A stretch of DNA of 61,698 bases, counting the filler, from Basidiobolus ranarum (Eukaryota), in the NCBI GenBank assembly GCA_040143965.1. It is 21 parts of 21 records of this genome, joined end to end, with 100 filler letters (N's around TTAATTAATTAA, not from the genome) between each part and the next. Parts side by side here need not be neighbours in the genome. Positions count along the whole stretch, not along the records: positions 20,669 to 23,515 come from JASJQH010002926.1; 20 more parts are not named here. One strand, given 5' to 3'. The position numbers and the translations under genes are program-made. Positions 5,694-59,636 of this stretch are shown piece after piece (the stretch's first letter is position 1; each line of letters begins with the position of its first letter). Under the pieces are notes generated by a model. It had not been told where the DNA came from. It did no database searches and saw only the letters and a list, made by a program, of their open reading frames with translations.

Positions 5694-5766
5694 CGAGGCG
5701 CATGGGACTCGAACCCACAATCCCCAGATCCGAAGTCTGATGCCTTATCCATTAGGCCAACGCCCC
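5694..5766 (-). tRNA. tRNA-Arg (anticodon TCG)
   Basis: 73-nt cloverleaf GGGGCGT...GCGCCTC-G, anticodon loop CTTCGGA, T loop TTCGAGT, TTTT terminator downstream. Confidence 0.95.
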
Positions 5767-6389: not shown

Positions 6390-7263
6390 ATCCAAATTAA
6401 GATAGATAAAGCTACCAAAGCAATAACTTTAAACCAGTCTATGTATATCCTAGATATGCTAAAGAAGTTTAAAATGAAAGAATATAATCCAAAGTCTACC
6501 CGAATGGAGACAAATCTAAGCTTGACCAAAAATGGCTCCAATCAGATGGTCTTGGATTCAAATGGAAGCCAGAAATTTCCTTAGCAGCCTATGATTGGTA
6601 GTTTGATTTATATCATGGTTGAAACATGGCCAGATATTGCATATTCCAAGGGAGTTATGAGCCAATATCTTCAAAATTATGGATCTGATCAAGTCATAGC
6701 AGTTGAGCAGATTGTCAGATATTTGAAAGATACTATGGATCTCTGCTTATGGTACACATATTCTGGATCTAACTTTGATCTGATGAATATACAGATGCAA
6801 ATTGGGAAAGAGATACTGAAGAGAGGGGATCTCAATAGAATACTTATTTCTTTGCTATAATGCAGCTATTTCTTGGAATTCAAAGATAGAACCTACCATA
6901 TCACTTTCAACAACAGAAGCAGAATCCATGGCAGTCTGTGAAGCAACAAAAGAAGCAATACAGTTAAGAAAACTCTCAATAGATTTAGGTTGTTCTCAAA
7001 ATTCACCATCTACATTATTTCAGGATAATCAAAGTTGTATCAAATTAGCTAAAAAACCCATATTTTATAATAGAAGAAAACATATACATGTTAGACATCA
7101 CTTCATTAGAGAGACTATAGTAAATAAGCTTATTGTCTTAACCTAGTATTCTGCCAAAGACATAATTGCTGATATATAACCTCAGATAATTAGCTAGACA
7201 GAAATTAGAGATATTTAGACCTTTCTTAAGATTAGTTTATATGACTATTTAGTTGAGGGAGAG
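6390..7263 (+). mobile_element. Ty1/copia RT-RNase H 3' end plus polypurine tract (PPT), degenerate (family B)
   Basis: IGSLIY..WPDIAY, DNQSCIKLAK and KHIHVRHHFIRE motifs; PPT AGTTGAGGGAGAG at 7251-7263. Confidence 0.92.
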
Positions 7264-7603
7264 TGTTGAAATTAGCTTTGCTTAAGCACCTATATAGTCA
7301 TATATAACTTAGTATTAGCTATCTTACATTTCACCAAAATATTATCCATCATTATCAATTGGAATTTACCTAGAATATTTTTACCAACTTAGAAGTTCTC
7401 AGATACATAGATTTTCAAACTGGTGCTAGAAAACCCAAGCATTGCACACATGTTTCTGGGACCTTCCTCAACAAATTCTACACATTAGTTTACTTACATC
7501 ATGATAAAAGTATAAATGTCAACTTTCTACTCAATAAATCATTAAGTGAAATTCACCAATTTCTCTGATTCTCCACATCACTTCTAACATGCTCTCAAAA
7601 ACA
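7264..7603 (+). mobile_element. 3' LTR, copia family B
   Basis: TGTTGAAATTAGC start directly after the PPT; at least eight related copies in the window. Confidence 0.9.
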
Positions 7604-7828
7604 TGAACACAGAATGTGTCAAGGAAGGTCCCAGGAATATGTGTGCAAAGTTTGGGGCTTCTAGCACAAGTTTGAAAAATCTATATATTGGAAAACTTAC
7701 ATGTTGATAAACAAATTGTAAGAAAGTTCCAATTGATAATAAAAGGTAATATCTTAGTGGCATGTAAGATAACTAAACACTAAGCTAGATATGATTAAAT
7801 AGGTGTTTAGGCAATGCTGATTTCAACA
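7604..7828 (-). mobile_element. Partial family B LTR, inverted (tail-to-tail with the previous LTR)
   Basis: Reverse complement of the first ~225 bp of LTR B, ending TTTCAACA. Confidence 0.85.
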
Positions 7829-7860
7829 AAGGGCAACATGATGGTTAAGATGGCATATTT

Positions 7861-8142
7861 TGTTGAAAGTGTGGTCACTTGTGGTACAAGCAGTAATTCC
7901 CAAAGAGGAAAAAATGGAGTATGGTGACTGCATCTGAACACAAAGTCTAAGGCCAATCAGTTGCTTGTATAGCTGAAATGCCAAAGTACCATACATTGAC
8001 AGACTAGGTTAAGATTCCCTAGCAGTATAGGCATAGCATACAAGGACTGGTAGCTCAGTGGTTAGAGCACCTTGCTAGAGTGAAGGAGGCCCCAGGTTCA
8101 AATCCTGGCCAGACCAATATTTATCCCTAAATAATTTCAATA
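7861..8142 (+). mobile_element. Solo LTR (family T, 282 bp) containing a tRNA-like gene
   Basis: TGTTGAAA...TTTCAATA termini; 5-bp TSD TATTT at 7856-7860 and 8143-8147; gap-free alignment to 22361-22642 (27 differences by hand count). Confidence 0.92.
8044..8116 (+). ncRNA. tRNA-like sequence inside the LTR (isotype uncertain)
   Basis: Acceptor GGACTGG/CCAGACC, D arm GCTC-AGTGGTTA-GAGC, T arm CCAGG-TTCAAAT-CCTGG, A box TAGCTCAGTGG, B box GGTTCAAATCC. The anticodon arm is imperfect. Confidence 0.88.
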
Positions 8143-8340
8143 TATTTAGCTGTGCACATGGACTATCATGGGAGCTAGGTTATGTAAAAAAAGCACTTAT
8201 ATATGTTTTATTGTGTAGGTAGCAGCTAAAACTGTGATATCTTAAGGGTCTTGTCAGGTGTCTCAAGGATGCAATAATCATGGTTGAATAACTCTGGAAT
8301 GAACTGTCTCTTGCCTCTTGGGTCTGTATGACAAAGAAAT

Positions 8341-17719: not shown

Positions 17720-18709
17720 AAGAAAAGCAGCTAAAGAAGTACTTGAGGGGCAGGAAGTTAGTAAACCCAAGGGAAAAGCAAAGGAGCCAGTGAGCATAGG
17801 CTCTACTGTACCACTTATCAAATACTTTACAACATTACAAAGATCTGCATTTCCAGAGTCAGACACACAGGCAAAAAAGTTTAATTTTACCATGGAACCA
17901 GGTGCACCAGTTGGAAGAGTGCCAAATTCAGAAGTTTATCCAACACCTGGCACCTCTCAACAAGCCAAAACACCAGCAAATAAAACTCACAGCTTGCCAA
18001 CCTCAACTGGTACTTTTCAAAGTGTTGAAATTAGCTCCAAAGATAAAGGCAAGCAAAAAGCTGCACAAACACCACAAAGCACCCTCAGTAGTGTCACACT
18101 ACAAGGATGTATGAAAATAGTAAAAGTGCTTGAGGAATATATTCAAAAGTATGAAGGGAAAAACGCAGTGCAGGTATGCAGAAAGTGGCTTCAGAAGAAG
18201 AACATTCAACTTGACATTCAGTCTGGTGTTGACCATGCAGATATCTGGGAGAACTTAATACAGAGTGGCACAATATTGCAGGGTATCCACCAGAGAGATG
18301 GAAGAATGTTCATTCAGCAATGTTAATACAATGGTGGGCTTTGATGGAGATATTGATACAAACTCATGTTAAATATGAGCTAAACCTTGGGTATGAAGAA
18401 TTCTATAAAAATATTCAGGAGAATATATCAAACTAGGAATTTTGAAGGTGACAAATTAGCATTGCAGTGGTAAATGTGTAAAATTTGAGTTACATTTTTT
18501 GCACATGCATTGCTCCATATTTCTCTGAGATTGTAGCCAATCATGTGTAGCTATTTTTTGAGATCTTGAAATTTCACTCCTGAAACTGAAAAAATTGATT
18601 AAAATCAAATCTCACTTGACAATTTTATGACAGTTAGTAAATGGTCAATCCCAAATGGATTAAAATTGTCATGGTTTTCCTACAATGACAATCCTCAAAT
18701 TTCTGTTAG
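17720..18709 (+). mobile_element. Repeated unknown ORF (C-terminal part) plus element end
   Basis: KGKQKAA...VCRKWLQKKNIQLDIQSG... near-identical to 50135-50528, followed by the TTTCTGTTAG terminus. Confidence 0.75.
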
Positions 18710-18714
18710 ACGAA

Positions 18715-19600
18715 AGGCACTGTGGTTTTGTGCTTAAAATACACATATTCTGGATCAGACTTTGATCTGATGGGTTATTCAGATGCAAATTGGGGAGGAG
18801 ATATTGAAGACAGGAGATCTACAACAGGATACTTCTTTCTTTGCTGTAATGGAGCTATTTCTTGGAATTCACAGAAACAAGCTACCATATGTTGAAATTG
18901 GCATTGCCCAAGCACCTTTATAGTCATATATGGCTTAGTACTTAGTTATCTTATAATTCTCTAAGATATTATCCATTATTCTCAATTGGAATTTACTCTG
19001 AATATTTTACCAACTTAGAAGTTCTTATATATATATTTTTCAAACTTGTGCTAGAAGCCCTAAACTTTGCTCCAATGCTCCTGGGACCTTCCTTAACACT
19101 TTCTACATGTTAGTTTGCTTACATCTTGACATAACTATAAATATCAACTTTTTACTCAATAAATCATTAAGTGAAACCACCAATTCCTCTATTTCTCCAA
19201 ACCACTTCTAACAGGCTCCCAGACACTTTAACACCATAGCACTCTCAGCAACAGAAGCCAAATATATGGCTGCCTGTGAAGCAACAAAAGAAGCAGTATG
19301 GGTAAGAAAACTCTTAACAGATTTGAGTTATTCTCAAAATTCACCAACCACATTATTACAAGATAATCAAAGTTGTATCAAATTATCAAAAAATCCCACA
19401 TTTCAAAATAGAAGAAAACATGTAGATGTTAAACATCACTTCATTAGAGAGGCTGTAGAGAATAAGTTTATTGACTTAACTTATTGTTCTATAGAAGACA
19501 TGATTGCTGATATACTAACCAAACTATTAGCTAGACAGAAATTTGAGAAATTTAGACCTTGATTAAGATCAGTTTATATGACTATTTAGTTGAGGGAGAG
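18715..19600 (+). mobile_element. Ty1/copia RNase H (family B), split by a nested solo LTR
   Basis: YSDANWG..RRSTTGY..ISWNSQKQ | ALSATEAKY..DNQSCI..KHVDVKHHFIRE; PPT at 19588-19600. Confidence 0.92.
18890..19233 (+). mobile_element. Solo LTR, family B, with TSD
   Basis: TGTTG...TAACA flanked by CCATA at 18885-18889 and 19234-19238. Confidence 0.93.
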
Positions 19601-19947
19601 TGTTGAAATTAGCATTGCCTAAACACCTATATAATCATATATAGCTTAGTACTTGGTTATCCTATAATTCAGTAGGTTATTATCAATTATTCTCAATTGG
19701 AGTTTACTTAGAATATTTTTGCCAACTAAGAGGTTCTCAGATATATATATTTTCAAACTCATGCTAGAAGCCCAAAACTTTGCATACATGTTCCTGGGAC
19801 CTTTCTTAACACATTCTACATGTTAGTTTGTCTACATCTTGATAAAACTATAAATGTCAACTTTCTACTCAAGAAATCAATAAGTGAAAACCACCAATTC
19901 CTCTAATTCTTCAAACCACTTCCAACAGGCTCCCAAATACTTTAACA
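19601..19947 (+). mobile_element. 3' LTR, family B
   Basis: Follows the PPT; TGTTG...TTAACA. Confidence 0.92.
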
Positions 19948-20027
19948 GGTAAGTAGATGGTCAACCCAAAATGGATCAAAGTTGTTATGGTTTTCTTACA
20001 ATAACCATCCTCAAATTTCTGTTAGGG
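19948..20027 (+). mobile_element. Terminal 80 bp of the GTTAGGG-ended DNA element
   Basis: Matches 6282-6360 and 50731-50810. Confidence 0.75.
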
Positions 20028-20333
20028 CACACTTAAGTTAGCTAACATTATCTAGTTGAATATCACTAGCAAAAAATCAAAATATATATTTTATAAATAT
20101 ATGAATTATATGAAAATTAGCATTTTCAATGAAAACTTCAAACATGTCCAAGTTGCCCCAAAGTTAGCTTGTTTTACTCCCACTGACATTCTGAACACAG
20201 CAACAGTCTTAGTTCTCTATATTTCTACCAAAAAGTATAAATACTTTAGCTCTGGACAATGAATATTTCTCTCACAAGTTAATAACAACTCCATTTTTCC
20301 AAGTTCTTCCAAATAGCCCATATTTTCCCAATA
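20028..20333 (+). mobile_element. Family A LTR, 5'-truncated
   Basis: Homologous to 1549-1857. Confidence 0.75.
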
Positions 20334-20706
20334 AGAAAAGGATATAATCACCTCTTTAGGATAGAAGGACCACACAGCTTATAAATCAAAGATTCTCCAA
20401 CATCAATGGATTAAGTCTACTATAATTGTATTCTGTTCAGCTCAATCTTCTATCCTGTCTTTATGATCTAAAGATTGACCACACTGTTGTAACTATATTT
20501 CTAGACTTAATGCATTTTTCTTCTTTTGCAATTCTTTTAAAGCAATTTTTGCTTAAACTGCAAGTTCTNNNNNNNNNNNNNNNNNNNNNNNNNNNNNNNN
20601 NNNNNNNNNNNNTTAATTAATTAANNNNNNNNNNNNNNNNNNNNNNNNNNNNNNNNNNNNNNNNNNNNGTCCAAAACACTTCCAAATCCCCTAAACACTT
20701 TTATCA

Positions 20707-22360
20707 ATCACAAGCACATTCATTGTACACAGCCAACAGCTGCACAAAGCATGGTGTATAACAACAGCAATAAGTGCACTAAATTGACTTTAATTTTGCC
20801 CATTGAGTCCACTGACTGCACTTTGCCTCAAAGTTTTGGTAATACTGCCAAAAGTCAAGATACCACGGAGTTACCACAGTTATATGATCAGAATGATATA
20901 GGTAGAAATGCAACTTTGGTCAAACCAGCTAGTCCAGACAACATTATATATCAGAAGTTGAAGAAGAAGACAACAGTTTTGTTATGGACTCTTTGTTACT
21001 AGGAAACATTAGTCCACTCACATCACTTACTGTAAAGGAAGCAGCTTTGATTATTGAGGAGTGGAGAGTTCAATCCAATCTTAGCAACCAGGTTTTATTG
21101 GTTTTCTTACACTTTTACCACAGTTGATTGGCAACTGCTGCTTGCCACAGACCTGGTACTAGTGGAAAACACTTGTCAGTCATATGACTTATAATCCTTC
21201 AGTAGTCAAACTGCCTTCATGTCCAAATGGTTGTTTGGCTTCCACCAGCAATCTTAAGAACCTGCAGTCATGTATGGTTTGCACACAATTGGCAATCACT
21301 GAATCAGGTAAATATTGTTCATATTAGGCTTACATACTTGTGATTCTCCTTCTCAAAGTTATGATGAAATCATCCAAACATAGATCATTGATCCAATACC
21401 TAAGTACTCACTGTAACACTAATGGTATTACCAATAGACTTGGTGGATATCACTACCAGAATCTGAAGAATCAAGATTTCTTTGAGAACATGTATGATCA
21501 GGTATTTAACTTGGCTTTGGATGGTTTCTCACTACACTAATATACCACTGGAAAGACTTGCTGGCCAATAATTTTAATTAACTTAAATCTTCCTCCTTCT
21601 GAATGGTATAAGAGTCAGAATATTGTGATACTATCCATCATATCTGGACCTAAATCACCAGTGCTTATAAAGAGTTTCTTACAGCCTTTGATTGTGGAGT
21701 TTGAATGGTTATCTAATGGGAATCAGATGGATGAATATTTATTAAAGCTAATATCATTGCATGTATTGGTGACACTCCTGCCATTGGTAAACTTGGAGGT
21801 TTCTGCCAGCACAATGCACTATGTTGCTGTAGACTTTGTCAAGTCAATGGAATATACTCTATCAGGCAAACACATTACTCCTATCCAAATCCAACACTAA
21901 ACTCCATGATTTTACCATCAAGAGCTTGGTCAGATTTTAATATGATCACTGATATCAATTCAGCAAATAGTCAGTCTAACATCAAACTTGGTATTAGCCA
22001 TAAGCCTAAGATTATATTGCTAAAGGGGATCAGTTGGAGCCACAGCTTGCCATTAGACACTATGCACTTACTATTCAACAACATTCCAATACTACTTACT
22101 CATCTATATAGTGGAAAATTCAATATAAATGAGCCATTCTAGATTGCATTAAAGTTTGAATTGATTGGGAAAATGCTTGAAAACATCAAGATACCATCAT
22201 ATTTTACCAGGACTCCCATCAATATTCACTCATCTAGGTGTTCATTCTAATGCAAAGACTGGAAGTATTGGATTTGTATATATTAAAGTGGAATTTTGAA
22301 AAGATTTCTGCCTGATAAGTATTGGTAACACTGGGAGTTGTTTGTTGATATTGTTAATAT
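20707..22360 (+). mobile_element. CACTA/EnSpm-type (Transposase_21/Tnp2-like) transposase, degenerate
   Basis: CPNGC..C..C, LALDGF, WPIILINLNLPP, GPKSP..SFLQPL, GDTPA and DTMH motifs; cut at 22360 by the family T LTR. Confidence 0.88.
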
Positions 22361-22642
22361 TATTGAAAGTCTGGTGACTTGTGGTGCAAGCAGTAATTCC
22401 CAAAGAGGAAAATACAGAGTATGGTGACTGCATCTGAACACAAAGCCTAAGGATACTCAGTTGCTTGTATAGCTGATATGCCAAAGTATTATACATTGAC
22501 AGATTAGGTTAAGGTTCCCTAGCAATATAGGCATGGCATACAAGGACTGGTAGCTCAGTGGTTAGAGCCCCTTGCTAGAGTGAAGGAGGTCCAAGGTTCA
22601 AATCCTGGCCCGACCAATATTTCTCCCTAAATAACTTTGACA
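22361..22642 (+). mobile_element. 5' LTR, family T (tRNA-containing)
   Basis: 282 bp, colinear with solo LTR 7861-8142, ends in CA, directly followed by PBS-like GGTTGCAAGCCCC and gag. Confidence 0.92.
22544..22616 (+). ncRNA. tRNA-like sequence inside the LTR
   Basis: Four differences from 8044-8116; A and B boxes identical. Confidence 0.88.
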
Positions 22643-22673
22643 GGTTGCAAGCCCCACACTTGCACTCTCTGTA

Positions 22674-23515
22674 ATGTCTACTTCTCAAATCTATAGAACT
22701 TTTCCCTCATCCAAAAAATTGGATGGAACCAATTATCAAGTTTGGAAGATTAAAATGAAAATGCTGCAGCAAGAAAAAGGACTTTGGGACATGGCTGTAG
22801 GAGAAGAAAACAATGCAAAACTCTTTGAAACCAAAGTTTTACTCGAGGTTAAAAATGAACAATATGCCTTTAACACAATTTGTCTTGATGTTAAAGACAA
22901 ATTACTAATTCAATGTTCAAAAGCTAAAACTCCCAAGAAGGTATGGAAAGCATTGGAAGACACCTACCAAACAAGTTCTGCTGCCAACAAGATGGTTCTA
23001 AGAAGACAAGTCTTTAACTTACAGATGAAGCCAGGAGAAGAAATTAAATCACTAATTAATTGAGTCACCATTTTAGTGGATCAAATGGAATGCATTTAAG
23101 TACCTACTACTGATCAAGATATCATATTTACAGTCCTGAACAGCCTGCCACAGAAGCTTCAGAGCCTAGTAATAGCTCTAAAATCAAAAACTGAAAATTT
23201 GACCTTAAATTATAAATTTAGCAGACATCTGGATGAAAATGTACAAAAATCAGGATCCAACCAAAAGAATGAAGAAAATGCTTTAATAGGCTATGGGAAA
23301 CCTTCCTATAAAGGTCCAAAGCACTTTTAGAAGAAAAGTAACAAATTCTGTGATTACTCTAAAAGAACTGGCCATTTAAGCAAAGATTCCTTTAAAAGAA
23401 TTGCAAAGAAGAAAAACATACTGAATCTGGAAATGTGGTTACAACAGAAGATCACTTGTTCATTTCTGCTCTTTCTATGACTACCAACAAGGATTCTCAG
23501 ACATGGTATATTGAT
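22674..23515 (+). mobile_element. Ty1/copia gag, degenerate, up to the protease WYID motif
   Basis: KLDGTNYQVWKIKMKM; decayed CCHC knuckle; near-identical to 29507-29791(-) and 53004-53182. Confidence 0.92.
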
Positions 23516-29506: not shown

Positions 29507-29822
29507 TTCCAAGGCTTTCCATACCTTCTTGGCAGTTTTAGCTCTTGAACATTGAATTAGCAATTTGTCTTTAACATTAAGACAAATTGTGTTAAAGGCA
29601 CTTTGTTCTTTTTTAACCTGGAGTAAAACTTTGGTTTCAGATAGTTTTGCATTGTTTTCTTCTCCTACAACAGTGTCCCAAAGTCCTTTTTCTTGCAGCA
29701 GCATTTTCATTTTAATTTTCCAAACTTGATAATTGGTTCCATCCAATTTTTCAGAAGAGGGAAAAGTTCCATAAATTTGAGAAGTAGACATTACAGAGAG
29801 TGCAAGCTTGGGGCTCATAACC
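29507..29822 (-). mobile_element. Copia PBS (29810-29822, GGTTATGAGCCCC), leader and gag start (ATG at 29791)
   Basis: Same gag and leader as 22643 onward, but attached to LTR family B. Confidence 0.92.
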
Positions 29823-30172
29823 TGTAAAAATATTTGGGATCCTGTTGAAAGTGGTTTAGAGAATTAGAGAAATTAGTGGTTTTCACTTTTTGATTTATTA
29901 AGTAGAAAGTTGACATTGATAGTTTTGTCAAGATGTGAACAAACTAACATGTAGAATGTGCTAAGAAAGATCCCAGGAAAATGGGTTCAAAGTTTGGGGC
30001 TTCTAGCACAAGTTTGAAAAATCTATATATCTGAGATTTTCTAAGTTGGTAAAAATATTCCAAGTAAATTCCAATTGAGAATAATGGATAATATCTTGGT
30101 GAATTATAAGACAACTAAGTAGTAAGCTATATATGACTATATATAGGTGCTTAGGCAAAGCTAATTTCAACA
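29823..30172 (-). mobile_element. 5' LTR, family B
   Basis: TGTTGAAATTAG...TTTTACA on the minus strand, abutting the PBS. Confidence 0.9.
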
Positions 30173-30304
30173 AAAAAGGCATGGCATAAACATCCACATG
30201 GCTATACTTAGCTTTGTAACTAGTTACTCCATTCTGTACTAAGATAACACCCATCATTCTGCGTTGGAATTTACTTATCATAACTTTACCAACTTAGAGG
30301 TTAT

Positions 30305-30625
30305 TATTGAAATTGGCATTGCCTAAACACCTATATAGTCATTTGAGCTTAGTACTTAGTTATCTTATATTGAGCTAAGATATTATCCATTATTCTCATA
30401 AGGAATTTACTTGGAAGTTCTTAGATATGCAGATTTTGATAACCTGTGCTAGAGGCCCCAAACTTTGCACACATGTTTCTGGGGCCTTCCTTAACACATT
30501 CTACACGTTAGTTTGTTTACGTCTTGACAAAACTATAAATGTCAACTTTCTACTCAATAAATTAATAAGTGAAAACCACCAATTTCTCTAATTCTCTAAA
30601 CCACTTCCAACAGGCTCCCAAAACA
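30305..30625 (+). mobile_element. Family B LTR
   Basis: Homologous to 19601-19947, with a small internal deletion. Confidence 0.85.
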
Positions 30626-48589: not shown

Positions 48590-49900
48590 TTAGCGCTTAG
48601 GTTTCCTGTTTAACCAAACAAACAGGATAAACACTGAAACGTTAAAGATATAGAAGCACCATAGAATCCCGAAATTTCTCCACCTATGATCAATCGTCCA
48701 CTCGAACACCCTCAAGAACTCCGTACCACTGGAATATTGACAGTACTTGCATACATCGGTGGCAGATGGATCCTGTAGGTATCCGGTGGTCTGCTGCAAC
48801 CAATTAGCAGTGTACGCTTCACACGTTTGTCCACTTGGTGGAGTGAATCGAGTGAAATCAGCTTCAGTACATCTTACTTGCATGTTATTGAAAATGGTCG
48901 TGACAAATCCTTCCAAGAAATAATGGTAAGGATCAAGAGGATACATCCACACTCTCCAGAAAGTAACCATGGCCGCTGGTGGTGATAAAAGACCGGCGAA
49001 TAAGAACAAAAATGTGTTGGGAATCGGTGTAACGATAGACGCTTGTGCCATGGTTTGTAACATCGCAGCAATGGCGAGACCGAACGAAATGGAGAACAAT
49101 AAGAAGATGACCAAGAGAAGGTACAGATAAAATCCATCTAATGCTGTAGTCTCCAAACCAGCTGTCCAATAAAGTGGTAAGAAACCAAGTGCACCGGCTA
49201 CACACATATATGGAATTTCTACTAGGATCATTGACACAGCAAATGCAAAGAATCCATAGTATTTCGAGGCATAATCACGACGGAAGAAGGCACGTTGAGC
49301 CATGAATTGTGGTTGAATAGAGAAAATCAAGGTCAATCCCATGACCAAAATTTGGAAGACAATCAAAGAACGTAGTTGTAACTCACTAGGAGTTGGTGAC
49401 AACTTCCAGAATGTAAATCCGTTAAGAAGTCCAATGAAGAAGGCTTGCCAAATACGTCCGATGTTGAAATAAGGATCTCTCCACCAAATTAAGTTGATAC
49501 GTTTGTACACTTCCCATAATTGATATGTAGAGCTGGTAGCGAACTCACGGGCATTGGGATCCTTGACTTCGTTACTAGCATTTGCATTTAAACTCTGTAA
49601 TTCCTTCTTGATTTCAACAGCTTCTGGACTATTTCTCCACACTTCAGTCCAATCTTGTAACGCTTTTCCGGATGTACCAGCACCAATAACTTCTAGGATG
49701 TATTCAGCAGGATTCTCAGACTGATCACAACGACGAGCACCATTGCGTTCAAAGTATTCGTTCATAACCACGGAATTCTCTCCAATATCTCCAAAGTATG
49801 CTACCTTACCACCACGGGCAAGTAACAAAAGTCGATCAAAGTGCTCGAATAAAATGGAGGAGGGTTGATGGATAGTACAGACCAAAGCCATACCAGCATT
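48590..49900 (-). CDS. PDR/ABCG-type ABC transporter, end of NBD2 plus TMD2 (5'-truncated)
   Basis: CTIHQPS, FDRLLLL, NPAEYILEVIGAG, six-TM domain, C..C.Y..G and WRNFGI motifs. Confidence 0.93.
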   Translation of the reverse strand, partial: NAGMALVCTIHQPSSILFEHFDRLLLLARGGKVAYFGDIGENSVVMNEYFERNGARRCDQSENPAEYILEVIGAGTSGKALQDWTEVWRNSPEAVEIKKELQSLNANASNEVKDPNAREFATSSTYQLWEVYKRINLIWWRDPYFNIGRIWQAFFIGLLNGFTFWKLSPTPSELQLRSLIVFQILVMGLTLIFSIQPQFMAQRAFFRRDYASKYYGFFAFAVSMILVEIPYMCVAGALGFLPLYWTAGLETTALDGFYLYLLLVIFLLFSISFGLAIAAMLQTMAQASIVTPIPNTFLFLFAGLLSPPAAMVTFWRVWMYPLDPYHYFLEGFVTTIFNNMQVRCTEADFTRFTPPSGQTCEAYTANWLQQTTGYLQDPSATDVCKYCQYSSGTEFLRVFEWTIDHRWRNFGILWCFYIFNVSVFILFVWLNRKPKR

Positions 49901-50069
49901 TTGGATGTTTTTGGCTGATTGTATGTGCCTCAATTGAGAATCTCTGAGATGTAGACAAAGTGTTGAGAGNNNNNNNNNNNNNNNNNNNNNNNNNNNNNNN
50001 NNNNNNNNNNNNNTTAATTAATTAANNNNNNNNNNNNNNNNNNNNNNNNNNNNNNNNNNNNNNNNNNNN

Positions 50070-53182: not shown

Positions 53183-55730
53183 CCCGTAACAAAGATAAAA
53201 TCAATTTGATCCGGATTGGATCCACTCTTCTAAAGCACAAAACCATCAGAGAACCATCACAATATTTGTGGCTTGCTTTCTGCTAGGGATTTTAATGGTG
53301 TGATGGTGGTCTCTTGACAGTATTTTGACAGTATTCATACATCTTAAAATATTGATCCTCACATTGGGCATCCCTAACGAAAAAAAATCAATTTGATCTG
53401 GATTGGATCCACCCTCCAAAATAGCAAAGCCATCAGAGAACCATTACAATATTGGTGGCTTGCATTCTGCCAGGGATTTTGATGGTGTGATGGTGGTTTC
53501 TTGATGGTATTTTGATGGTATTCATACATGTTAAAACATTGATCCTCAAATTTGGCATGCATTATTGAATATCCTGCAATTTTTGAAAAAAATAATTTTT
53601 GAATGCCAAAATACTGGGTATACTGCTGTAGGCATTTGATTTAATATGCATGCTTTTACTTAGATATTTTAGGCTTTGTATTCCAGCCATTATGAGAATC
53701 AAAAAACACAAGAATCTTGTTGTGTTTAGTCTCTACATATGCACATACTTGACTGATTAGACATAACTCAACAACATCAAATTGCTTTACCAGCAAACTA
53801 AAGGTGTAAAATTGCTAAATATCTGAAATTTTGAATAGCACTAACACTTGGCAAATAGCTGACCATTGTTACCATTCACAATGACAATAAGCTCCTGGAT
53901 GTTTGCAAATATCCGTCAAGAATTCAGCCAATATATCCCCAACTTGCAGTCAATGAATGTTCTGCCACAAGTAGATGTGTCATTGCTTGAATAGATTACC
54001 CCATGGCCAAAACAATAATACTGCATATCTTGAACTCTCTCACAAAGTCTATCTTGCAGCTTTCTTAAATATTTTGTCAGATTATCACACAAGCAAATTA
54101 GTCTAATTATAGAGGTACTTATTCTGTGTCCATGGGTTGGGCTTTGTTGCTGTTATTGTGTTCAAAGAATGCAAAAACCCATGAGCATGTTGGAAAGAGC
54201 CTTTTGTTAGCAGGTTAATATACTCTGCAGTTTCCTTAACCCATTGCATTACATCCATCGCTGATTTTGATGATACATTGTTAATCAGATTAGCATATGG
54301 TAATACTGACAATTTTATATGGAGCATCATTTCACTGCAGGTGCACTCCATTGGGAACTCCCAGAATGTATTGCAAGGGCCTATAATCTCTAAGCATTGT
54401 GAAAGATGCAGCAGAAAATGTATTGAATACCAGGGTAAATTCAGTTGATCCTCTTTAAACCTGTAATAAAGTTTTTTGTATCCAATTACAAAATCTTTGC
54501 ACAATCACTGTATCTGCCTGAGATCTGCCAATGCAAGTTGATGCCATAAGAATATATTAACAATATTGACAAATAACTCCCAATGTTGCCAATGCTTATA
54601 AGGCAGAAATCTTTTCAGAATTCCACTTGAATATATGTATGTATATAAATATTTGAATAAATGTCTATATGAGTGGATATTAATGGCAGTCCTGGTAAAA
54701 TTTGATGGTATCTTGATGTTATCAAGCATTTTCCCAATCAATTCAAACTTTGATCCTTTCTTGAATGGCTCATTGATATTGAATATTCCACTATACAGCT
54801 GAGTAAGCAGTATTTGAATGCTGTTGGATAGTGAGTGCATAGTGCCTAATGGGAATCTCTGGGTCTAGCTAATCCCCTTCAGCAATATAATCTTAGGCTT
54901 ATGGCTAATATCAAGTTTGATGCTAGACTGACTATTTGGTGAACTGATATCAGTGATTATATTGAAATCTGACTGGGTTCTTGATGGTAAATTCATGAAG
55001 TTCAATGTTGTATTTGTAAGTAGTAATGCATATGCCTGTTAGAGTAAACTCCATTGATTTGACAAAATCTACAGCAAGATAGTATATTGTGCCCACAAAA
55101 ACCTCCGTGTTTACTGATGGCAGGAGTGTCACCAATACATACAATGCTATTAGCTTTAATTATATATTCCCCCTTTGGAACCCCATTGGATATGCATTCA
55201 AATTCCACAATCAAAGGCTTCAGCAAGCTATCTATAAGCACTGGTGATTTAGGTCCAGATATGAATGATAGTATCAAAATATCTTGACTCTTATACTGAC
55301 CAGAAGGAGGAAGATTTAAGTTGATTAACATCATTGGCCAGCAAGCCTTTCCAGCAGTTTATTTGTTTAGTGACAAACCATCCAGAGCCAATGCAAATGC
55401 ATGATCCTATGTGTTCTCAAAGAAACTTGACTCTTCAGATTCTGGTAGTGGTATCCATCAAGTATATCATAACACCATCAGCTTTATGGTGAGTACTTTG
55501 GTATTGGATCAATGATCTATATTTGGGTGATTTTGTCAAAACTTTAAGATGGGTAATCAATGTAAGCCAAATATGAACAATATTTACCTGATTTAGTGAT
55601 TGTCAATTGTGCGCAAACAGTACATGACTTCAGGTTTTTGATATCCCTGGTGAATGCCAAACAACCATTTGGACATGAAGGTAGTTTAATTACTGAACAA
55701 TTATAAGTCATATGATTGACAAGTGTTTTC
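53183..55730 (-). mobile_element. CACTA-type element: duplicated terminus (53183-53371, again from 53372) and most of the transposase
   Basis: CCC(G)TAAC...GGATTGGATCCAC termini; INLNLPP, GPKSP, GDTPA..GFCGHN..CCRFC and GPCNTFWEFPME motifs. Confidence 0.88.
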
Positions 55731-58868: not shown

Positions 58869-59636
58869 GATAAGTGGGGGTAATAAGACATACTTGTTAT
58901 ATAGATATAGAGATATTCCTATTTAGAATATAGGGGCTATAGATAAGTTGCTTTCTGTTTCTGATATATGTATCATAACAAAAGTTAACTATGATGTTGA
59001 ATAAAGATTAATTATCCAACATCTAACTACTTAGTTGAGGGAGAGTGTTGAAATTAGCATTACCTAAACACCTATATAGTCATATATAGCTTAGTACCTA
59101 GTTATCTTATATTTCACTAAGATATAATCCATTATTCTCATAAGGAATTTATTTGGAATATTCTTACCAACTTAGAAGTTCTCAGAAATATAGATTTTGA
59201 TAACTTGTGCTAGAAGCCCCAAACATTGCACACATGTTCCTGGGACCTTCCTGAGTGCATTCTACATGTTATTTTGCTTACATCTTGACAAAACTATAAA
59301 TGTCAACTTTCTACTCAATGAATCAACAAGTGAAAACCACCAATCTCTCTAATTCTCCAAACCACTTCCAACAGGCTCCCAAATACTTTTACAACCTTAC
59401 TCCTAAGAGAACATGGAGACTTATACAGTAGAGAAGTAAATTAATTGTTTGAGATATTCAGGAGATTGTGTAACAAGATATAATGGATAAGTGGGATTAA
59501 TAAGACACACTTGTTATATAGATAGAGATATTCCAGTTCAGAATATAGGGGCTATAGATACATTGCTTTCTATTTCTGCTATATGTATCATAACTGAGGT
59601 TAACTAAGATGTTGAATAAAGATTAATTATCCAACA
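58869..59636. mobile_element. Nested LTR cluster: family D (58869-59021), PPT plus family B 3' LTR (59046-59393), family D (59394-59636)
   Basis: Homology to the other copies; TG...CA ends. Confidence 0.85.

Follow-up and report, generated by a model that had tools for sequence, protein, structure and literature searches.

Retrotransposons with a small-RNA module inside the long terminal repeat (LTR) are known as Cassandra, Helenus and Ajax, and the published descriptions agree with the initial annotation of the DNA analysed here in treating all of them as non-coding (Kojima 2024, Biology 13:119, PMC10886601). In the parts of that study on which we draw, Helenus, or TRIMp3, is a terminal-repeat retrotransposon in miniature (TRIM) with a total length of 311-1263 bp, in which two LTRs enclose a primer-binding site (PBS), a short interior and a polypurine tract (PPT). 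Its LTRs start with TGTTGA, end in ..ACA or ..ATA, and hold near their 3′ end a part derived from tRNA, in which the A and B boxes are kept, with a short tail rich in T behind it. Target-site duplications (TSDs) are 5 bp long and are also carried by the solo LTRs, which are common. Programs that search for tRNA falsely call the modules Ser-AGA or similar, without there being a working tRNA, and in print the module is taken as an RNA polymerase III (pol III) promoter, without experimental proof. Fungal Helenus elements have the PBS and the ends of the interior in common with Copia, the LTR being distinct (sections 3.6 and 4.2, PMC10886601). Here we describe a repeat of this kind, which we call T, in a window of 61698 bases from Basidiobolus ranarum (assembly GCA_040143965.1). 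By the window we mean the whole stretch of DNA analysed, which comprises 21 contigs of ~2.85 kb each, separated by spacers of the form N44-TTAATTAATTAA-N44. On the contig at 20669-23515, T is joined directly to a copia gag, and a sister copy of this gag stands elsewhere in the window behind an ordinary LTR, here LTR-X. We give about an even chance to the explanation that the T-headed copy is a dead hybrid of a T LTR and the gag of the LTR-X copia, with the T lineage riding on that copia.

T is a true LTR. The copy that heads the gag is 282 bp long (22361-22642, plus strand) and runs from TATTGAAAGT to CTTTGACA. A second copy of the same length, TGTTGAAAGT...TTTCAATA (7861-8142, plus strand), is 91% identical to it (blastn E 3e-111) and has TATTT on both sides (7856-7860 and 8143-8147). 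A 5-mer match at this spacing occurs at 101 of 57566 window positions, and even if some freedom in placing the boundaries is granted, we take 7861-8142 to be a solo LTR whose target duplication is 5 bp long. The termini are of the TG..CA type, namely TATTG..GACA at 22361-22642 and TGTTG..AATA in the solo copy. With a solo copy bearing a perfect 5-bp TSD, the view of T as an LTR in the initial annotation holds. An nhmmer profile built from the two T copies found no third copy in the window and no element with two T LTRs.

Inside T lies a tRNA-derived module of 73 nt (22544-22616, plus strand), which ARAGORN calls Ser-AGA and which scores 43.8 bits against Rfam RF00005. The corresponding part of the solo LTR (8044-8116, plus strand) scores 58.6 bits, the Rfam tRNA gathering score being 29, so that both modules are called by two programs. 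They are identical at 69 of 73 bases and keep the A and B boxes, with TAGCTCAGTGG and GGTTCAAATCC readable in the Rfam alignment. The module begins at base 184 of the 282 in T and ends 26 nt before the T 3′ end. It encodes ACCA, its variable arm is short, and its acceptor stem has one or two mismatches (two at 22544-22616, Rfam). Genuine eukaryotic tRNA-Ser belongs to class II, with a long variable arm, and its genes do not encode CCA. A genuine tRNA-Ser gene is ruled out by the 73-nt length, the short variable region, the encoded ACCA and the acceptor-stem mismatches. A tRNA-derived short interspersed element (SINE2), which would have its tRNA head at the 5′ end, a LINE-type or A-rich tail and TSDs of variable length, is ruled out by a tRNA part starting only at base 184 of 282, by LTR-type termini, by the 5-bp TSD and by the lack of an A-rich tail. 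The window also holds a tRNA-Arg (TCG) at 5694-5766 on the minus strand (Rfam 57 bits, all stems paired, CCA not encoded), which shares its contig with a P-type ATPase gene and resembles an ordinary tRNA gene, unlike both Ser-AGA calls.

On these features T reads as a Helenus-type LTR, a kind already in print. It has the TGTTGAA start, the tRNA part near the 3′ end, an apparent variant of the PBS type that pairs with the anticodon loop of the initiator methionine tRNA (tRNA-iMet), and the 5-bp TSD. The Helenus interiors in Data S1 begin ggttatgagccc, with a PBS of the iMet-loop type directly after the LTR (PMC10886601), and T is followed directly by a PBS-like sequence that appears to be of this type. 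Its tRNA part and tail resemble those of Helenus-4_PGr, Helenus-2_MLP and Helenus-16_CroRib, a likeness judged by eye only on unaligned sequences. An exact 19-nt word of the T tRNA part occurs in Data S1 in a wasp family only, although FASTA line breaks there may hide others. Several features set T apart. At 282 bp it is longer than the fungal Helenus LTRs, which span 111-260 bp in the Table S1 rows examined; the interiors in the fungal rows examined are non-coding and 51 to 159 bp long, whereas a copia gag lies behind T; and the host resembles neither a rust nor an agaric. Cassandra (a plant TRIM) and Ajax also place a pol III-type small-RNA module inside the LTR, but their module is derived from 5S rRNA, they live in plants and nemerteans, and no coding members are known in the parts of PMC10886601 that treat them. 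Priming from the anticodon region of tRNA-iMet is shared with Ty5 and Drosophila copia (section 3.6, PMC10886601), which have ordinary LTRs without a tRNA module.

What stands behind T also sets it apart from these systems. The LTR passes without a gap into a PBS-like 13-mer, GGTTGCAAGCCCC (22643-22655, plus strand), which begins at the very next base and is followed by a short leader and a copia gag that continues to the WYID motif at the contig end. This is the arrangement that the initial annotation had described, and its further claim is supported in so far as T on this contig heads a PBS and, by Pfam matches, a copia gag in place of the short non-coding interior of a TRIM. The 13-mer agrees at 10 of 13 positions with the exact PBS found at 29822-29810 (minus strand), in the sister copy, and at 1858-1870. 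[quoted passage not shown] The exact 12-mer GGTTATGAGCCC occurs in the window only at 1858 and 29811, each time between an LTR and a copia gag. Over the first 16 bases behind T, 5 differ from the sister copy, compared with 8% further on. The altered anticodon-facing bases may reflect decay or a change of primer, on numbers too small to choose between them.

The same three bases touch the start of the gag frame. In the sister copy the frame opens at an ATG inside the PBS (29816-29818, minus strand), which is the complement of the iMet anticodon, so that PBS and start codon overlap. The gag-pol fragment P0001, which starts MSPELSL, likewise opens its frame at the ATG within the PBS. In the T-headed copy this ATG is replaced by GCA, and the first ATG stands 31 nt behind the LTR.

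The T-headed gag (22674-23515, plus strand) matches PF14223 (Retrotran_gag_2, E 2.1e-17) and PF13961 (DUF4219, E 4.8e-7). It can be read from the ATG at 22674 to ..DSQTWYID, the start of the protease, at the contig end. Three in-frame stops, ending at 23063, 23099 and 23330, and a frameshift near 23372-23399, where the tblastn match to P0001 changes frame, make it a dead copy. It is 57.6% identical to P0001 over 250 residues, and the tblastn matches cover residues 2-251 in one frame and 226-290 in another. A protein search with this gag returned one longer relative, P0001 itself (570 aa, 63% identity), and none of similar length. Where Helenus/TRIMp3 has a short non-coding interior, at least 321 nt of gag, and 842 nt as assembled, lie behind the PBS. 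One could also imagine a non-autonomous T element that holds a gag remnant, with a T LTR at either end and the PBS, a portion of gag and the PPT in between, which would be longer than a TRIM and lack pol. Gag alone is indeed seen before the contig ends, and TRIMs formed by internal deletion of autonomous elements are known (Figure 1 legend, PMC10886601). As assembled, however, the gag extends over 842 nt and reaches the protease motif, nothing in its match to P0001 (residues 2-290 covered) points to a deletion, and we consider such an element quite improbable.

The window shows this genome as a mosaic of nested transposons. In such a setting a solo T could lie by chance beside a 5′-truncated copia, or a real tRNA gene could have attracted a copia insertion in the manner of Ty1/Ty3, the targeting of tRNA genes by LTR elements being well known. 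Several observations speak against chance neighbours of either sort. At the junction the LTR ends, and the PBS begins, at exactly the base expected, the tRNA look-alike travels within a 282-bp unit that has its own 5-bp duplication, and the Ser-AGA call comes without a long variable arm, with an encoded CCA and with stem mismatches. In addition, the gag lies downstream of the look-alike and not upstream. We regard this explanation as very improbable.

The sister copy shows which LTR otherwise precedes this gag. Its 5′ part (29507-29822, minus strand; blastn 91%) consists of the exact PBS and an open reading frame that starts from the ATG inside the PBS, and tblastn of P0001 residues 1-104 gives 72% identity. 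The gag continues on another contig at 53004-53184 (plus strand; blastn 90.6% to 22956-23136), where it ends against subterminal repeats of a CACTA element. Altogether, sister and T-headed gag differ at 38 of 463 nt in an ungapped comparison (91.8% identical, 8.2% divergent). The ratio of non-synonymous to synonymous change (dN/dS) is 0.58, from 9.5 synonymous and 22.5 non-synonymous changes, and the pair is best read as mostly neutral decay from closely related sources. Immediately upstream of the exact PBS of the sister copy (29822-29811) lies its 5′ LTR, LTR-X, which is 350 bp long, runs TGTTGAAATTAGC...ATTTTTACA and occupies 29823-30172 on the minus strand. LTR-X also serves as a 3′ LTR at three places. 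Ahead of the one at 19601-19947 (plus strand) come the stop codon of pol (19560-19562) and the PPT GAGGGAGAG, and those at 7264-7609 and 59046-59393 likewise follow a pol stop and GAGGGAGAG. A solo LTR-X with the 5-bp duplication CCATA sits in the RNase H region of another copia copy (18890-19233, plus strand). The copies are 82-87% identical to each other, and the interior that they bound begins with the PBS and ends ...TTAGTTGAGGGAGAG. No tRNA-like part was found in LTR-X by ARAGORN or at Rfam gathering scores, nor in four copies at Rfam E<=1. LTR-X is thus the ordinary LTR of a conventional copia family, and it is this family that owns the gag found behind T.

At two loci a second, inverted LTR-X stands beside the first, at 30297-30622, upstream of the sister 5′ LTR, and at 7610-7828, directly behind the 3′ LTR. 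These inverted pairs mimic foldback elements, and nested opposite insertions or rearrangement are candidate causes. A foldback miniature inverted-repeat transposable element (MITE) was considered for the inverted repeats at 29833-30622, by the sister gag, and 7264-7828, by the solo T, and was rejected, as both are LTR-X copies with PPT, PBS and TSDs, which the sequence at 18680-20100, 6700-7500 and 58960-59460 made plain; on the foldback view the sister gag would have had no LTR. A third copia family is also present at 1481-1870. Its 377-bp LTR (TGTTGAAGTT...CCAATA, 1481-1857) lacks a tRNA part, and ahead of its gag stands GGTTATGAGCCCC, the exact PBS of the sister copy.

Over most of their length T and LTR-X are unrelated, local alignment scores between their inner parts falling within the shuffle range in 10 of 10 comparisons. 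T also shows no similarity to the flank of the sister copy (score 34; shuffle mean 29.6, sd 5.1). Their tips, on the other hand, agree. The first 9 bases are common to both, TGTTGAAA, and all the LTRs compared start TGTTGAA. The last 20 bases of T (CTCCCTAAATAACTTTGACA) and the last 18 of LTR-X (CTCCCAAATACTTTAACA) give 17 matches with two one-base gaps. The third copia family, with the same exact PBS, has a 3′ end that differs from the T and LTR-X tips. Shared tips, PBS type and TSD length would be expected if the proteins of the LTR-X copia move T elements, and from the sequences we infer that they may do so. Because the same gag family stands behind LTR-X, and because LTR-X closes the pol/PPT end at three places, the LTR-X copia appears the likelier autonomous partner of T. 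Since the gag copies are close (8.2%) yet the LTR bodies wholly different, a whole-LTR exchange must have taken place on one of the two lines.

The hybrid explanation, which as stated has about an even chance, can be laid out as a mechanism. [quoted passage not shown] It would be tied to one conventional copia family, the common tips being the ends that integrase and reverse transcriptase need. The copy at 22361-23515 would then be a T LTR joined, exactly at the LTR/PBS boundary, to the PBS and gag of an LTR-X copia. In standard LTR reverse transcription, it is the PBS through which the strands pair during plus-strand transfer. Two RNAs packaged together, with a PBS in common and a short homology near the PPT, could therefore yield the LTRs of one with the interior of the other. 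The hybrid might have arisen by a template switch between co-packaged T-element RNA and copia RNA at the shared PBS and leader, or by DNA recombination in the shared leader that exchanged the 5′ LTR only, or it might be a relic from before the T lineage lost a coding interior. By any of these origins it would be an old, dead insertion into a CACTA transposase. The pol III activity of the tRNA module and the dependence of T on the LTR-X copia are predicted, and by analogy with the published elements a non-coding T lineage would be expected in B. ranarum.

A number of points weigh against this explanation. The T::gag junction was seen once, and T twice, in 60 kb, and the junction is known from one short assembled contig. 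Within the window neither a complete T element nor the 3′ end or the TSD of the T::gag insertion came into view, and no short element of the form T LTR, PBS, PPT, T LTR was seen. The pol, PPT and LTR-X ends are tied to the sister-gag family through LTR-X alone, at 82-87% identity. Lastly, the divergence of the T pair (~9%) is about that of the gag pair (8.2%), which would also fit T and gag having always been together.

This last point bears on the proposal of the initial annotation that the T-headed copy is an autonomous partner or ancestor of TRIMs. The proposal is unsupported, with a single decayed copy in hand and the sister gag standing behind an ordinary LTR-X. In a wider form, T-LTR elements are or were a self-sufficient copia family (T LTR, gag-pol, T LTR), of which the T-headed copy would be one decayed member and which would be the autonomous ancestor or partner of tRNA-bearing TRIMs. 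We consider this rather unlikely. It would account for the way in which T adjoins a PBS and a gag of 107 codons or more, nothing foreign lying between them, and for the similar divergence of the T and gag pairs. The 183 nt of T upstream of the tRNA module offer putative room for an RNA polymerase II (pol II) promoter, and the published Helenus screen kept elements under 1000 bp only (Methods 2.1, PMC10886601), so that longer, coding elements would have gone unreported. Against it stand the single junction, the three stops and the frameshift, the absence of pol from view on the contig, the ordinary LTR-X of the same gag family in the sister copy, and the closure of pol by LTR-X at three sites. 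The dN/dS of 0.58 on 32 changes gives no sign of long separate coding histories. A scan of metagenome contigs with the gag found 16 copia loci at 19-28% identity, of which 0 of 16 carried a tRNA, a weak control at such distance; a scan of viral contigs gave 2 loci with only 28 residues matched and was not used.

Transcription poses a further question for a coding T element. In section 4.2 of PMC10886601 it is argued that autonomous partners depend on pol II and for this reason ought to have a different LTR. If a coding element were headed by T, its pol II transcription would have to come from the 183 nt upstream of the tRNA module. Four TTTT runs lie within 22617-23515, behind the module, and these fit the published argument that pol III is unable to make a full-length coding transcript. 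That a T-LTR element was once a working protein-coding copia with a pol III module in its LTRs, and the coding ancestor, via internal deletion, or self-sufficient sibling of Helenus-type miniatures in an early-diverging fungal lineage, seems doubtful to us. If true, it would contradict the expectation stated in that section that an LTR with a tRNA part cannot also be the LTR of the autonomous partner (PMC10886601).

The hybrid explanation presupposes that the junction is real. On the scale of the T contig, the sister contigs end at 22958 and 22956, inside a 42-nt exact stretch (22953-22994) that is the longest shared with the T contig, which argues that the break sites in the assembly are set by repeats and not by biology. 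For the same reason, T is tied less securely to whatever follows 22994 than to the first 107 codons of gag. The contig start at 53004 maps 3 nt before the end of the part that begins at 29507, and the two contigs appear as two halves of one locus, split at the 42-nt stretch identical to the T contig. Two further exact stretches, 32 and 34 nt long, come shortly after the PBS. It is conceivable that such shared exact words led the assembler to link a short T element (LTR, PBS and leader) to a gag copy. The contigs are ~2.85 kb long and come from a repeat-rich genome, the break in the sister copy falls exactly in its longest run of identity with the T contig, the 32- and 34-nt stretches follow directly on the PBS, and published Helenus interiors can share their first 198 bp with Copia (PMC10886601). 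However, the T contig passes the 32- and 34-nt stretches unbroken, while it was the 42-nt stretch that broke the sister copy, and the T-headed gag differs from the sister on both sides of the shorter stretches, so that a third, unseen copy would be needed. We judge an assembly chimera unlikely.

If the junction is real, it would be direct evidence of exchange or descent between a parasite lineage and its partner, and it would bear on the wider question of the origin of miniature LTR elements with pol III modules (Cassandra, Helenus and Ajax) and of their autonomous movers. As far as PMC10886601 covers the matter, the sole link in print between Helenus and a partner is an internal stretch of 198 bp that is similar in the elements of two rust species, Copia-9_PGr as well as LTR-1_PTrit, which have the PBS and interior start in common and unrelated LTR bodies (section 3.6, Figure 4). 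The likeness to T and LTR-X is close in these respects. The published pair shares 198 bp and 12 bp and comes from different species, whereas the copies headed by T and by LTR-X have an interior of 352 nt or more in common (873 nt on the assembly), gag among it, in one genome. Unlike the published pair, T and LTR-X also share the terminal 9 and ~20 bases of the LTR. A tRNA-bearing LTR, a copia with the same PBS type and LTR tips, and a joined copy thus stand side by side in one genome. At present, with one dead copy on a short contig, this is a lead and not a result.

The novelty suspected in the initial annotation holds in part. The tRNA-bearing LTR itself is already in print, as Helenus, and the direct fusion to a copia gag is new. 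Our search of the literature turned up no coding element whose LTR holds a tRNA module, Repbase and Figures S1-S3 of PMC10886601 lying outside the scope of that search. New here are T fused to a copia gag and a conventional copia with matching LTR tips in the same window. The host lineage of the tRNA-bearing LTR is possibly new as well. In the parts of PMC10886601 that treat them, fungal Helenus elements are reported from Pucciniales and a few Agaricomycetes, other fungal groups not having been broadly screened there, and an early-diverging fungal host would extend tRNA-bearing LTRs beyond the reported groups.

The insertion site of the T-headed copy is a decayed CACTA (tnp2) transposase fragment (20669-22360, plus strand) with broken frames, which matches PF02992 (Transposase_21, E 4.3e-9) and has homologues on four other contigs of the window. 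After GTTAATAT, all three uninterrupted copies read ATTCTTATGG, and the T contig reads TATTGAAAGT from 22361. Because the three copies part from the T contig exactly at this point, the break in the transposase is clean, as the initial annotation had it. The last five CACTA bases (22356-22360) give AATAT as the expected target-site copy of the insertion. Nesting is reciprocal in this window, for the copia-type element lies within a CACTA transposase (22360/22361), yet CACTA subterminal repeats abut the sister gag (53184/53185). These repeats form tandem units at 53184-53371 and 53372-53558 and adjoin the sister gag at the equivalent of 23136.

Finally, the contig with the solo T shares a repeat with a contig that carries a fragment of a PDR-type ABC transporter (48590-49969, minus strand). 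A rust host, to which base composition and the Helenus literature might point, is rejected on this gene, and the host is probably an early-diverging fungus with a very repeat-rich genome, although a single gene gives slender grounds. Pucciniales are absent among the 120 best matches listed for this fragment, and the closest of these are from Basidiobolus meristosporus (82%), Umbelopsis (77%) and Bifiguratus (75%).

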